From the NCBI GenBank assembly GCA_964611335.1, contig CAZSXR010000001.1, forward strand, positions 382,993 through 446,992: a stretch of DNA of 64,000 nucleotides, written 5' to 3'. Made by a program: the position numbers and the translations under genes. Source of the stretch: an uncultured Pseudobdellovibrionaceae bacterium (lineage in GTDB: Bacteria > Bdellovibrionota_B > Oligoflexia > Oligoflexales > Bog-1112). Shown piece by piece: positions 54,821 to 60,405 of the stretch. Positions within the stretch are counted from its first letter, which is position 1; each line of letters starts with the position of its first letter. The notes beneath the pieces are model-generated. The model was not told where the DNA came from. It saw only the letters and a list, made by a program, of their open reading frames with translations, and made no database searches.

Positions 54821-56269
54821 TTATTCTATCTTTCCGCATTCCAATTTTACATCACAGATGACAATGGGATGCTGCCCGCCTGCAGAACTTGCATAAATCC
54901 AATCCCAGCTTTGTCCCAGTAAAAAACCACCTACAGCACCAAGAATCCCAATCATAGACGGAACCATAATGACAAGATTAAACAACATGCCAAGTGTGGG
55001 CATAAAAGCTTCTGCGATAAGAGGACCTGAGAAAAGGCTGAAAGACATGAGGAGCACTATGGCAACTGCAATAAAAATCATGAGTGAGATAATAAAGGCA
55101 GCAAACCAACTGACAAGGCCCAGTATGATCGCAAGGTTTGAATTTGAACCACAACCCTGAGGACATTCATTATAAGTCAAATCATCTGTTGCTGTGCAGG
55201 TGCGAGTAATGTTGCTAACCCAACCTCCATCTCCATTTTGATTACAAGAGTGTGTTGAGGGAGGGTCTGAAGAGCTCCAAGAAGGACCTGCAGTGCTTGC
55301 AGTTTTTGTAATCATCTGCTGACAGATCGGATTCGAACTGTTGTCATGTCCCACTAAAATAAAACCTGGAGGACAAGCTATTTCTTCACTCTCACATAAA
55401 GGACCTTTTGCATTGACTTGCGGGAGGCTCGTTGAGGGATCTAAAAGCGGCCTGTAAGGTCGGAAACATTTGCATGCAAGAGTTCCTGTTAAGGCATCCG
55501 CACTTGCAACAGCTCCAATGTTACACTGCATTCCCACTATAGTGAGAGTATCTACACTGATCCACTGTGGCTTTCTTGGATAAGTTCCCAATTTGAAACG
55601 TTTGAATTTCGTATAAACTTCAGAAATTTCATAGCGGAATTGTATGGCTTCCGCAAAAGCACAGGAAGTCTGTGCTGGGTTCCTTTTACTGCATACAGGT
55701 TTGAAAAATACACGTACCCGTAATGGAAAATCCTGATTTCCAACTCCATTCGTGTCTCCTTTGAAATTGTAAGCAACATATTGCCCAGGATTTCTCATAC
55801 CCGCTAAAAAACAAGACATAGAACGGGATTTCCAAGGAAGGCTTTGTCCGGAGCTTGGACAGTTAGAATCTCCAACAGCATTGCCGAAAACATAAGACGT
55901 CTCAGGAAAGAGTAGAAACTCCATCCCTAAATTAGAATCAACTTTTGTGGAATCGCAGGCATTCCCACTCACGCCTGTTGCAGAAGTATAAGTTGAAGTC
56001 GTCATAGTTCCTGAAGGATTTCCCACACAGTCACGCAGCATGGCATTTCCCGGCAAGTCTATAGAAGGATCCACACTTTGAAGTATCACCTGTGGATTTG
56101 TTAGAAACAGTTCAATATTACGCGCAAGTTGGTCACGTGAAGCCTCTTTCTCATAAATTATGGTTTCCACCTCACGGTTGCTAAACATCCTTGTAACATA
56201 CAAAAGAACTGCAGAAGACAGAACAATAGCGAGCATTGCATAAGGGAGTGCGGCACCTTTTTGATTCAT
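54821..56269 (-). CDS. Cys-rich membrane protein, unknown function (N-terminal anchor, C-terminal multi-TM bundle)
   Basis: N-terminal hydrophobic helix AALPYAMLAIVLSSAVLLYV. About 20 Cys in the central region. Three or four TM helices in the last ~110 aa. Confidence 0.45.
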   Translation of the reverse strand: MNQKGAALPYAMLAIVLSSAVLLYVTRMFSNREVETIIYEKEASRDQLARNIELFLTNPQVILQSVDPSIDLPGNAMLRDCVGNPSGTMTTSTYTSATGVSGNACDSTKVDSNLGMEFLLFPETSYVFGNAVGDSNCPSSGQSLPWKSRSMSCFLAGMRNPGQYVAYNFKGDTNGVGNQDFPLRVRVFFKPVCSKRNPAQTSCAFAEAIQFRYEISEVYTKFKRFKLGTYPRKPQWISVDTLTIVGMQCNIGAVASADALTGTLACKCFRPYRPLLDPSTSLPQVNAKGPLCESEEIACPPGFILVGHDNSSNPICQQMITKTASTAGPSWSSSDPPSTHSCNQNGDGGWVSNITRTCTATDDLTYNECPQGCGSNSNLAIILGLVSWFAAFIISLMIFIAVAIVLLMSFSLFSGPLIAEAFMPTLGMLFNLVIMVPSMIGILGAVGGFLLGQSWDWIYASSAGGQHPIVICDVKLECGKIE

Positions 56270-56316
56270 ATAAACCTCTAAAAGAGTCTTATCTTCATTA
56301 TAATCGAATTTTACTC

Positions 56317-57198
56317 CTAGAGGCCTTTAGCTAACTCCTTTGCTAAAATTTTATGCCCTAATGCCGAGGGGTGAAATTGGTCTAGATAAAAAAAATCTTC
56401 CGTACTTTCCAAACCATAGTCCTTATAGTGAACTTCGAGTTTCTTGAAAAAATGAAAGAGATCCGGGTGGTGAATTTTGATCATTCGTTCTTTTTCAAGA
56501 GCAATCATGCGCTTTGACAGTCTCCAATTGTAAGAATCGATAAGAACTTCAAACACAAAATCAATGACCCCTTTTTCAAAAGAAAACCAGGAGAGCCCTG
56601 TAAAAATGCCAGCAAGACTCAAGAGAGTTTTACTTACAAGCGGTGTCGAATGAATCGGGACAAGATTCGGAATGAGAAAATTACGAGCACCCTTTCTCGA
56701 AAGACGAATAACAGCATCGTAAATATCTTCTATGACTTCTTCAAAGCGAAGCTCACTTACATCAAAGAGTAAAGACGTATTCATAAATTTGTTTTTAAAG
56801 TCGTTTGCTCCTATCCAAATAATATACAAAGCTGACGCATCTGCCTGATCCCTTGTTTTTTCAAGATAAGAGTGAACCTGTCCTCGTAATCCAGGTGTCT
56901 CTTCCGTTCCCCATCCACTCGTAGCTCCTGCAAAAGCAAAGTTATAACCACCTAATCGACTCGTCTTTAAATCCAGATCCCATTCTTCTGCAAGATGTTC
57001 CACCCAAACCTTTCCATTTGAAAAGCAACCTGAGGGATATAAAGCACAAAATATTGGTTTTTGAAGATAATCTTTCGGACATGCGTTTCCCATATCTGAA
57101 AGACTATCTCCAAAAACAACGATTTTAGAATAATCTGCATTTGCAAAATGAGAGAAGCTACACAACAAAATTAATAGAATTTTTTTTAACATAAGCAC
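56317..57198 (-). CDS. secreted SGNH/GDSL lipase-acyltransferase
   Basis: Signal peptide, then block I KIVVFGDSLSDMGN. The C-terminus DQFHPSALGH is the block V DxxH. Confidence 0.85.
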   Translation of the reverse strand: MLMLKKILLILLCSFSHFANADYSKIVVFGDSLSDMGNACPKDYLQKPIFCALYPSGCFSNGKVWVEHLAEEWDLDLKTSRLGGYNFAFAGATSGWGTEETPGLRGQVHSYLEKTRDQADASALYIIWIGANDFKNKFMNTSLLFDVSELRFEEVIEDIYDAVIRLSRKGARNFLIPNLVPIHSTPLVSKTLLSLAGIFTGLSWFSFEKGVIDFVFEVLIDSYNWRLSKRMIALEKERMIKIHHPDLFHFFKKLEVHYKDYGLESTEDFFYLDQFHPSALGHKILAKELAKGL

Positions 57199-59047: not shown

Positions 59048-59136
59048 AGCTTCCCCTCCGACTCAATACATCACGCCTTCCAAACTTTCTTGGGAACTAT
59101 GAAAAGTTTTGAGTGAGAGAAATCTAAGTCCGAAAC

Positions 59137-60405
59137 TTATTTTAAAAGAGGGGGAAGCAGTTTTACGTAGTCTGTATTCAGAAGATAAACTTTTGTATTG
59201 TTGAATTCGGTGGAAGATGTGGATGTAGGTAGTGCCCAAAAAACGTTTGTATTGGCAAGTCCCTTACTGTCTTTGGGGACAATGCTATAGAGATTTACAG
59301 AGCCATTAGAGGCCAACTCGTGAAGAGTACCTTCTACAAGATACTTTTGTTGCACACAATACACAGGATAGTCCCACTGGGCCTGTGCTTGTAAATTCCC
59401 GTTTTGATCAACACCTAGTGTTTGTTGGTACTGAGCATAGATCCCTGCTGCATCCGCAATCGTTTGAGGTTGATCTGTCGTGTTAGTAACAATTTGGCCG
59501 AGGCATTGGTATCCAGCAGGAGGAATAGGCTTCCAAATGACGAGGGTTTGCAATTGGTAATAGGTACTCAAGTCCCCAACTCCTGTTGTGGTGCTACCGC
59601 CCATTTGGACATTGAGAAAGTCATATATAGAGGACCCCCCCGCTGTGACTTGTTTGCATTTAGAATCATCTGTGTGCGAAGGAGACCCCCCCTCCTTGTA
59701 TGCTTCGTTTACTTTCTTACATGCCAGCAAGAGGTCCTCTGTCATAGGGCCAAGTCGAGAATAGACTTTCTGATAGGCCATGGGTGGTGAGATCGCTGCA
59801 GATAAAGGGTCTTGGGAAGAAATGGCATAAAGAGAAAGCACAGCTGTGGGATAGGGAGGAAAGGTCAAAGAGGGACTCAGAGTGTGACCAATGATTTTGA
59901 AAGAGTCCCCACGCTCCGCACTGACGGCGAGTTCATTACTTCCAGCAAAACTTGCTATGGGTTGGAAAACGGAGACCGAGGTTGTTTTCTTTCCTGCAAG
60001 TGTCCAAACAGCGGAGGAATCGCCTGCAGTGGCAAGGTCATACCAGACAGGTCTGTAAGAGTTGATAAGTTGAACGAGAAATACTTTGTTGGCATCTGCC
60101 GTAGGTTTGAGGTTCAGTTTTTGAGGAGCATTGCGATTAAAATTCGATCCCAAATCCCCACTTTGATAATTGGGAATGGAACTGCTTCTCGAATTGTTGA
60201 CACCCCGAGGGCTTATTGTCGTCGTATCCGTTGCGCTTGTGTTGAAATTTCCCTGAGCTGTGGTGCTATCAGAGAAAACTCCATCAGCGGATTTAATAGA
60301 ATTGGACGTTTTGGAAAAAGCAGATTTAGTTTGGGAGCTTGTTGGTGAACAAAATGTCAGAGCTGCAAAATTACTAAATATTATTAAGGTCTTAAGCTTT
60401 TTCAT
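59137..60405 (-). CDS. exported S/T-rich protein, unknown function (weak Vps62/DUF946-like motif)
   Basis: MKKLKTLIIFSNFAALTFC signal and a low-complexity S/T/N region. IWKPIPPAGYQCLGQIV resembles the WxPxPPxGYxxLG motif recalled from Vps62/DUF946. Confidence 0.4.
   Translation of the reverse strand: MKKLKTLIIFSNFAALTFCSPTSSQTKSAFSKTSNSIKSADGVFSDSTTAQGNFNTSATDTTTISPRGVNNSRSSSIPNYQSGDLGSNFNRNAPQKLNLKPTADANKVFLVQLINSYRPVWYDLATAGDSSAVWTLAGKKTTSVSVFQPIASFAGSNELAVSAERGDSFKIIGHTLSPSLTFPPYPTAVLSLYAISSQDPLSAAISPPMAYQKVYSRLGPMTEDLLLACKKVNEAYKEGGSPSHTDDSKCKQVTAGGSSIYDFLNVQMGGSTTTGVGDLSTYYQLQTLVIWKPIPPAGYQCLGQIVTNTTDQPQTIADAAGIYAQYQQTLGVDQNGNLQAQAQWDYPVYCVQQKYLVEGTLHELASNGSVNLYSIVPKDSKGLANTNVFWALPTSTSSTEFNNTKVYLLNTDYVKLLPPLLK

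Follow-up and report, generated by a model that had tools for sequence, protein, structure and literature searches.

Why does a bacterium send a kinase-like protein out of its cytoplasm, and what have the genes beside it to do with its work? The question is raised by four consecutive minus-strand genes in a 64,000-nucleotide stretch of DNA (hereafter, the window) from an uncultured Pseudobdellovibrionaceae bacterium (assembly GCA_964611335.1, contig CAZSXR010000001.1, positions 382,993 to 446,992). The genes encode a lipoprotein, a kinase-like protein of 598 amino acids (aa), a GDSL lipase and a Cys-rich membrane protein. The original prediction, read from the letters of the DNA, had described them as a cluster of exported proteins, likened the kinase to the type II phosphatidylinositol 4-kinases (PI4Ks) of eukaryotes and proposed that the cluster remodels the lipids of a host or prey membrane. 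All of the evidence that we present is computational, and both structure models on which we draw are mediocre. Sequence comparison indicates that the kinase-like protein is a member of a large bacterial branch of the PI3/PI4-kinase-like clan, most of whose members carry signal peptides, and that this branch lies about equally close to the type II PI4Ks and to the Fam20 kinases of the secretory pathway. The protein is best regarded as a new bacterial variant, exported and with two domains, in the PI3/PI4-kinase-like/Fam20 group and not as a PI4K member.

Architecture and kinship of the kinase-like protein

The kinase-like protein comprises a predicted Sec signal peptide, a helical N-terminal domain and a C-terminal kinase domain (Table 1). 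Three sets of sequences served to place it: a five-sequence profile made from the window protein and four homologues (A1), 107 relatives (A2) and 22 full-length relatives (A3). The signal-peptide feature is kept across A3. The protein has five Cys (12, 88, 96, 397 and 451) and no CC-containing motif; Cys88 and Cys96, both in the helical domain, recur in at least 90% of the A3 sequences, and a near-invariant pair of this kind fits an oxidising compartment. The helical domain matched no family or PDB chain apart from weak matches of the coiled-coil type. Within the kinase domain we located the motifs GGGAGT (residues 380-385), VLKP (398-401), DNYDRNVDN (496-504) and IDHGF (516-520), and the residues K400, E420, D492, N497, D499, R500, N504, D517 and H518 are invariant in the 22 family members. 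They include the ATP-binding Lys (K400) and its Glu partner (E420), two residues of the catalytic loop (D499 and N504) and the metal-binding Asp (D517). Because all of the catalytic residues are invariant, we predict that the protein is a catalytically active enzyme. The same invariance makes it very improbable that it is a HipA-like toxin kinase or a dead pseudokinase, readings to which weak HipA_2 matches in 16 of the 22 full-length relatives (best 2.4e-4) and the place of Fam20A, a pseudokinase, at the top of the PDB matches for A1 and A3 could otherwise point. The HipA toxin reading was rejected because the protein is exported and has no adjacent helix-turn-helix or HipB-like partner gene, and the window protein itself gave no match to HipA_2 (PF20613). 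A CotH reading was also rejected, as there was no CotH match.

The clade to which the protein belongs is large. A word-index search returned four close homologues (36-47% identity), and its repetition with the 107-sequence alignment returned the same four proteins and nothing further. Run against 1.84 billion representatives, the A1 profile matched 1603 proteins at E <=1e-3 and 253 clusters at E <=1e-10; about 25 of the profile matches have the full architecture, and 22 of them were aligned as A3. Of the top-scoring clusters that were sampled, the majority bear signal peptides. Signal-peptide-like N-termini are present in 22/22 full-length relatives and, by a simple hydrophobic-core test, in 54 of 74 short relatives (230-420 aa); as a background for this test, 18 of 45 open reading frames (ORFs) of the window scored positive, with about two false positives. 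The window's kinase sequence is itself in the protein collection, with a 44-aa fragment (P0164) as the representative of its 90% cluster, which may explain why a self-match was missing from the first homology search. Some relatives are larger: P0032 (3184 aa) has four tandem PI3_PI4-kinase-like domains and a DUF4347 domain, and P0025 and P0026 (1091-1215 aa) carry long low-complexity N-termini ahead of the helical-plus-kinase unit. A plasmid search found no relative of the kinase, and the species-representative genomes gave a single match, in a metagenome-assembled genome (MAG) of a 'Deltaproteobacteria bacterium' (L001). None of the literature consulted describes bacterial kinases of this kind that are exported by Sec, and a 2026 preprint on bacterial PIK-like kinases concerns intracellular ones (10.64898/2026.09.18.752743). 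The exported family is apparently undescribed in bacteria.

Profile libraries placed the window kinase near several families. It gave no match to PF00454 (PI3_PI4_kinase) up to E 0.1, stayed below the gathering score of Pfam Fam20C (PF06702; 13.6 bits against 26.8, E 0.052) and matched NCBIfam TIGR03843, the SCO1664 family, at E 3e-9 but with 36.6 bits against a cut-off of 172.4. This last match runs through the entire kinase domain, with residues 384-583 aligned to positions 17-234 of a 253-position model, and all 22 full-length relatives matched the same model below threshold (best 3.4e-15). The SCO1664 family of actinobacterial PI3_PI4-kinase-like proteins is the best named bacterial family for the kinase. 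Its members are proteins of about 250 aa, from which the window kinase differs by its export and its added helical domain. SCO1664 is regarded as a signature gene, known only by its linkage to mshC and mycothiol synthesis (PMC4255298). Among the 107 relatives, 74 matched PF00454 (best 5.9e-13), 18 HipA_2 and 9 Fam20C; among the 22 full-length ones, PF00454 was matched by 14 (best 2.4e-9) and Fam20C by 2. The gathering score of PF00454 was reached by relatives P0026, P0032 and P0038.

Solved structures told a similar story of double kinship. In searches of the PDB, the single sequence matched FAM20C and FAM20A only (0.0018-0.007; FAM20C 0.0018), and the A1 profile found FAM20A (2.3e-4) and no PI4K. 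With A3 the matches were FAM20A (8e-7), CeFam20 (2e-6), FAM20C (1.5e-5), Fam20B (3e-5) and PI4K2A (5.2e-5), and with A2 they were CeFam20 (3.9e-23), PI4K2A (3.2e-20), FAM20C (1e-19) and PI4K2B (7e-18); type III PI3K, PI4K and PIKK enzymes matched A2 only at 2e-4 or worse. An AlphaFold2 (AF2) model of the protein, with a predicted local distance difference test (pLDDT) value of 69 and a predicted template modelling score (pTM) of 0.65, placed Fam20C first in Foldseek (7e-5) and PI4K2A after it (3.6e-4), with a template modelling score (TMt) of 0.41 for both. Matches to Vps34 over 640-670 columns were discarded (template modelling score about 0.2, root-mean-square deviation about 24 Å). The likeness to type II PI4Ks that had been claimed thus holds at the level of the family, with A2, A3 and Foldseek, but PI4K2A is absent from the searches with the single sequence and A1. 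The protein does fall in the PI3/PI4-kinase clan, and type II enzymes are its nearest eukaryotic lipid kinases by the A2 profile; Fam20, however, is equally close or closer. Since the Fam20 matches are equal or better, 'PI4K' is only one of several equally close labels and a lipid substrate is an assumption. We take 'type II PI4K-like', on these comparisons, to be a fair description of resemblance, one that does not mean membership and does not imply a lipid substrate.

Inspection of the kinase domain revealed a mosaic, with a Fam20-like alpha-C segment and a catalytic loop, DRNVDN, that has the PI3/PI4 spacing. VLKP (398-401), DRNVDN (499-504) and IDHG (516-519) represent the VxK, D-R-x-x-x-N and D-x-G motifs, and align with DRGNDN and IDNG of PI4K2A. 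The fold class, the Gly-rich loop, the VxKP Lys, the catalytic loop (DRNVDN against DRGNDN) and the I-D-x-G motif are held in common with the type II PI4Ks (PI4K2A and PI4K2B). Those are, however, cytosolic, palmitoylated, peripheral membrane enzymes, whereas the window kinase is predicted to travel via Sec, is without the CCPCC motif and has an extra 340-residue helical N-domain. By profile and fold, the Fam20 kinases (Fam20C, Fam20A, Fam20B and C. elegans FAMK-1) are its best solved-structure relatives. Like these, it is predicted to be exported by means of a signal peptide to an oxidising extracytoplasmic compartment, and its alpha-C region, NEIAASVIDRLLDLRGVPLT, is close to that of FAM20C. 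Unlike these, it lacks the large Fam20 insertions, and the Fam20-type catalytic loop (DRHH-Y/F-E; DRHHYE) was not found in it, its place being taken by DRNVDN. Fam20 has been treated as a eukaryote or metazoan cluster (PMC9758233) and as a distant relative of bacterial HipA (PMC6829671).

Given the lead of Fam20 in every one of these structure searches, its Fam20-like alpha-C region and its export to an oxidising compartment, the protein could be a bacterial counterpart of Fam20 and phosphorylate exported proteins at Ser/Thr or on a sugar; one candidate substrate would be the Cys-rich membrane protein, whose gene co-occurs strictly with the kinase gene at this locus. We judge this unlikely: the loop is of the PI3/PI4 type, the Fam20C gathering score is missed and only 2/22 relatives match that family, the Cys-rich gene is missing beside distant homologues, and the Ser/Thr-rich tether of the neighbouring lipoprotein, present regardless of the kinase, does not behave as a dedicated substrate would.

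The lipase, the Cys-rich protein and the lipoprotein

The 293-aa protein was correctly recognised by the original prediction as a GDSL/SGNH enzyme of the lipase/acyltransferase type. It matches PF00657 with 89.4 bits against a cut-off of 23.6, and blocks I, III and V are intact (GDSLSD 30-35, GANDF 130-134 and DQFHPS 273-278, with Ser32, Asn132, Asp273 and His276). A signal peptide can be read at its N-terminus, ending in SFSHFANA before DY. Its best solved relative is Legionella PlaA (8a24, 3.3e-22), followed by the thermolabile hemolysin (TLH) of Vibrio and ChoE, so that the enzyme is of the PlaA/TLH type. The same SGNH blocks occur in Legionella PlaA and PlaC, in Vibrio TLH and in Salmonella SseJ, an effector to which the kinship is weak. 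NCBIfam PlaA (NF045906) was matched at 1.6e-31 but with 109.6 bits against an equivalog cut-off of 450, and the equivalog cut-off of PlaC was likewise not reached. From these matches, the protein appears to be a PlaA-like (lyso)phospholipase that is related to PlaA without being its ortholog.

In the Cys-rich protein, 20 Cys are invariant and the N-terminus, MNQKGAALAYAMLAV, is conserved, with a conserved N-terminal anchor (MNQKGAAL...); two to three hydrophobic helices lie at the C-terminus. The protein is predicted to be a membrane protein with a disulfide-rich ectodomain and C-terminal transmembrane helices. No match was found in Pfam, NCBIfam or the PDB, which makes it an orphan family.

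The fourth protein reads as an outer-membrane-type lipoprotein with a Ser/Thr-rich tether. The lipobox Cys19 follows AALTF, and an equivalent Cys is present in 10/10 homologues, mostly with S-P after it. Counted from the ATG at 60405 the protein has 422 aa, and from the ATG at 60420 it has 427 aa, as in an identical NCBI-derived copy (P0152). It had been called Vps62-like, and the motif behind this name is indeed present: IWKPIPPAGYQCLG is the only stretch that matches Pfam Vps62 (PF06101; E 2.5e-4, 30 residues). The score of 20.0 bits, however, stays below the gathering score of 22.1, the match covers 30 of 541 profile positions, and the protein is a lipoprotein. All ten homologues match Vps62 through one 30-residue motif only (best 1e-5). 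A tether that serves as the substrate of the kinase was considered and rejected, as its composition is alike with and without the kinase and one homologue only is acidic.

The AF2 model of the lipoprotein is of low confidence (pLDDT 59.7). With it, Foldseek placed GNIP1Aa (6fbm_A) at the top (2.5e-8, 328 columns), followed by MACPF structures of pleurotolysin B. No PDB chain was matched by sequence, and neither the MACPF signature (Y/F-G-x2-F/Y-x6-G-G) nor the beta-tripod motif (D-x-G-S/T-G-x3-D) was found in the lipoprotein. The Pfam Vps62 family largely corresponds to the beta-tripod, a domain for target recognition that was first observed in the toxin GNIP1Aa (PMC8624791, PMC7613979, PMC10683392), which also has a partial match to PF06101 (PMC8624791). 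GNIP1Aa is an insecticidal protein of Chromobacterium with MACPF and beta-tripod parts. Its chain has 521 residues against about 320 folded residues in the lipoprotein, which, unlike GNIP1Aa, would be lipid-anchored. We treat the toxin-like fold of the model as a lead.

These neighbours bear on the proposal that the locus is a module for remodelling host or prey membranes, in which the kinase would be delivered into another cell and make phosphatidylinositol 4-phosphate, with the GDSL enzyme acting against that same membrane. Bacteria do secrete phosphoinositide kinases: LepB, MavQ and OpiA reach the host cytosol by type IV or VI secretion. They resemble the window kinase in being atypical kinases with a destination outside the bacterial cytoplasm, and they act on membrane lipids; the window kinase, however, has a plain Sec signal, and the three, none of which surfaced in any search, are not close to it in sequence. 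Type II PI4K is a specific relative of the kinase in the A2 profile (PI4K2A, 3.2e-20) and the loop spacing is of the PI4KII type, the lipase is kin to the secreted PlaA and PlaC of Legionella and weakly to SseJ, and the modelled lipoprotein is similar to a pore-forming insecticidal toxin. Moreover, ATP would be on hand inside the target cell. Yet the protein and glycan kinases of the Fam20 group are equally near or nearer, no effector-delivery system or signal was seen, and the relatives come from environmental MAGs and metagenome contigs. A clade as large and widespread as this one (253 clusters at E <=1e-10) also looks more like one with a general role in the envelope than like a group of specialised effectors, and the four genes are not kept as a unit. 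We consider such a module quite unlikely, and host- or prey-lipid remodelling is unsupported.

Layout and conservation of the locus

The four consecutive minus-strand genes were confirmed, with intergenic distances of 47, 52 and 89 bp (Table 1). Each of the four products carries a signal peptide, a lipobox or a membrane anchor that is kept in its homologues, and every motif that had been quoted was found in its place when the sequence was checked. Homologues of all four proteins occur on other contigs at 36-56% identity, so these are four real genes and not chance ORFs. The same-strand run extends beyond them to an IHF-beta-like gene, a GNAT gene and a gene for a 260-aa protein. Promoter- and terminator-like sites in the window do not exceed the number found in shuffled sequence, and the three gaps contain none; co-transcription of the four genes is possible. 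The guanine-plus-cytosine content of the cluster (39-42%) equals that of the rest of the window and, with no deviation in base composition, there is no sign of a recent foreign origin. The window as a whole is ordinary chromosome, with genes for Lon, ClpX, trigger factor, MutL, the E2 and E3 components of pyruvate dehydrogenase, DHFR and tRNA-Gly.

Table 1. Coordinates of the genes at the locus and of the domains of the kinase-like protein, as positions in the window.
Feature	Coordinates	Strand	Basis or remark
260-aa protein	52834-53616	-	no Pfam/NCBIfam match
GNAT acetyltransferase	53659-54393	-	signal-peptide-like N-terminus if start = MKKNIRVFLFFTASLGILGAALA
IHF-beta/HU-like gene	54421-54798	-	begins 22 bp past Cys-rich gene; 29-residue N-terminal extension in longest ORF
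Cys-rich membrane protein ORF	54821-56269	-	482 aa; ORF listing
SGNH/GDSL hydrolase ORF	56317-57198	-	293 aa; ORF listing
Kinase-like protein ORF	57251-59047	-	598 aa; ORF listing
PI4KII/Fam20-like kinase domain, residues ~368-590 (predicted)	57278-57946	-	catalytic residues, PDB profiles, Foldseek
All-alpha N-terminal domain, residues ~30-367, with Cys88/Cys96 pair (predicted)	57947-58960	-	DSSP on AF2 model: helices only, pLDDT mostly 75-90
Sec signal peptide, residues 1-18 (MKRISMFLFLMCSSTVFA; predicted cut before TQ)	58994-59047	-	sequence reading; hydrophobic-core score 2.03
Lipoprotein ORF, longest form	59137-60447	-	ORF listing
Outer-membrane beta-barrel, Phenol_MetA_deg-like, divergent	60641-61618	+	PF13557, 24.8 bits against cut-off 22

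The cluster was compared across related contigs. The barrel, lipoprotein, kinase, lipase and Cys-rich genes are all present in the window, L002 and L020. L003, where the contig ends at the barrel side, has the lipoprotein, kinase, lipase and Cys-rich genes; L004 ends at the same side and has the lipoprotein (cut), the kinase, the lipase and the first 67 aa of the Cys-rich protein before its other end; and L005 has the barrel, lipoprotein and kinase genes, with the lipase cut by the contig end and the Cys-rich side beyond the contig. The kinase and Cys-rich genes are absent from L016/L017, where the barrel, lipoprotein and lipase genes are present and TerC and DHFR come directly after the lipase. 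In L014, L015 and L018/L019 the barrel and lipoprotein genes are present and the other three are absent; the lipoprotein gene is followed there by an opposite-strand gene for 244-260 aa that gave no tblastn match to the 260-aa protein of the window. A barrel homologue stands beside the lipoprotein gene at every related locus that reaches that side (L002, L005, L014-L020), and the lipoprotein and the barrel are the constant pair of this locus. The Cys-rich gene is present here wherever the kinase gene is and absent where the kinase gene is absent, the two being gained or lost together. Gene order and orientation are identical in every kinase-bearing contig of this locus, despite protein identities of 36-47%.

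The four genes do not form a fixed module. Of the co-conservation that the original prediction would lead one to expect, the pairing of the kinase with the Cys-rich gene and the full order in the window, L002, L003 and L020 stand, but loss is stepwise and the arrangement is restricted to a lineage. The flanks are syntenic (TerC, 76% identity; the 260-aa protein, 79%; DHFR, 59%; and the barrel), and the cluster proteins are 36-54% identical against 59-79% for the flanking genes, as expected for fast-evolving exported proteins. Because the flanks are shared, the contigs come from one lineage, and the conserved order is weak evidence of function. A chromosomal spot, with the conserved lipoprotein and barrel on one side and housekeeping genes on the other, that simply gathers unrelated secretome genes, each acting alone, would also leave such stepwise presence and absence between syntenic flanks, and would be in keeping with operon signals at chance level and with the different company that other homologues of the kinase keep (a CDF transporter, a CDP-alcohol phosphatidyltransferase or lgt). 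That there is no functional module at all, a view that partly overlaps the one we favour, is possible if doubtful, since the gaps of 47-89 bp hold no terminator-like site, order and orientation are constant in the kinase-bearing contigs of this locus, and the kinase and Cys-rich genes come and go jointly.

Kinase homologues outside this locus have neighbours of their own. In L001, the homologue (2437-4017) follows lgt and a CDP-alcohol phosphatidyltransferase gene (637-2058) whose best NCBIfam matches are the archaetidylinositol-phosphate, DIPP and PIP synthases (4.5e-16 to 1.5e-8, all below threshold) and not pgsA, a hint, at this single locus, of a link between the kinase homologue and inositol lipids. 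A pgsA-like gene lies two genes downstream of the homologue in L010 and L006. Directly downstream of the homologue is a ZitB-like exporter of the cation diffusion facilitator (CDF) family in L006 (2356-3237), L009 (9656-10342) and L010 (487-1431). L002 has a CDF exporter (7094-7996) just after the cluster, and the copy in the window (50625-51620, plus strand) is 3.2 kb off and on the other strand. The exporter might provide the exported kinase with a metal cofactor, or its place might be plain synteny.

Among the other genes of the run, export of a GNAT (53659-54393, minus strand) would be unusual, and the 260-aa protein (52834-53616) is 79% identical in L002, far better kept than the exported cluster proteins. 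Elsewhere in the window, two tandem, overlapping plus-strand genes (32663-35739) each encode a PDZ_3 domain and a signal-like N-terminus; the first has a trypsin-like protease domain as well, the second a PDZ_2 domain instead. A stand-alone protein of 1314 aa (4952-8896, plus strand) resembles a non-ribosomal peptide synthetase and has AMP-binding, carrier and hexapeptide-transferase repeat domains. Large ORFs with signal peptides or lipoboxes, several without a Pfam match, occur at 2108-3757, 11116-12660, 13389-15500, 16359-17354 and other positions. The genome appears to be rich in uncharacterised exported proteins.

Site of action, substrate and meaning of the exported kinase

We favour the reading that the locus encodes extracytoplasmic, membrane-directed proteins, among them an exported kinase whose target would be membrane-associated, and that it is a variable cassette and not a fixed four-gene machine; our confidence in this reading is evenly divided. 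Once exported via Sec, the kinase would act in the periplasm, at the outer membrane or in released form, and would phosphorylate a hydroxyl group on some membrane-associated substrate. Because the catalytic loop is of the PI4KII type and a lipase is encoded next to the kinase, we favour the head group of a lipid or glycolipid over the alternative, Ser/Thr of a protein. The Cys-rich membrane protein may be a partner of the kinase or its docking site. Together with the lipase, these two may form a lineage-specific cassette inserted beside the conserved pair of lipoprotein and barrel. The target membrane could be that of the cell's own envelope or that of another cell.

Several observations weigh against this reading. 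We know of no source of ATP in the bacterial periplasm, which makes the site of kinase action hard to place and the phosphate donor the main difficulty. The window kinase passes no curated family cut-off in Pfam or NCBIfam, and its modelled kinase domain is weakest at the Gly-rich and catalytic loops (pLDDT <50 at 380-385 and 498-519). The shared flanks leave room for common descent, instead of function, as the cause of the conserved gene order, and kinase homologues at 27-40% identity are found elsewhere with no lipase, lipoprotein or Cys-rich gene nearby.

Kinases working outside the cytoplasm are well known in animals, where they form the Fam20 family, and to our knowledge the export of kinases by bacteria through the Sec route is essentially undescribed. 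What is surprising here is the size of the clade, its exported nature and its place between Fam20 and PI4KII. We propose, tentatively and against our own considerable doubt, that this large, undescribed clade is Sec-exported and catalytically competent and is the prokaryotic sister or source of both Fam20 and the type II PI 4-kinases. For the locus itself, the annotation of four hypothetical proteins is corrected, and the kinase and the Cys-rich protein form a pair that can be put to the test. If the clade were indeed such a sister or source, phosphorylation beyond the cytoplasm, whether of lipids, glycans or proteins, would be widespread in bacteria and would need a phosphate donor on the outside; the recurrent neighbours would then hint at metal supply, through the CDF exporter, and in one case at inositol-lipid synthesis. 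If the enzymes are active, they would add a new layer to the chemistry of the bacterial envelope or the extracellular space, and the origin of two eukaryotic kinase families would gain a concrete anchor among prokaryotes.

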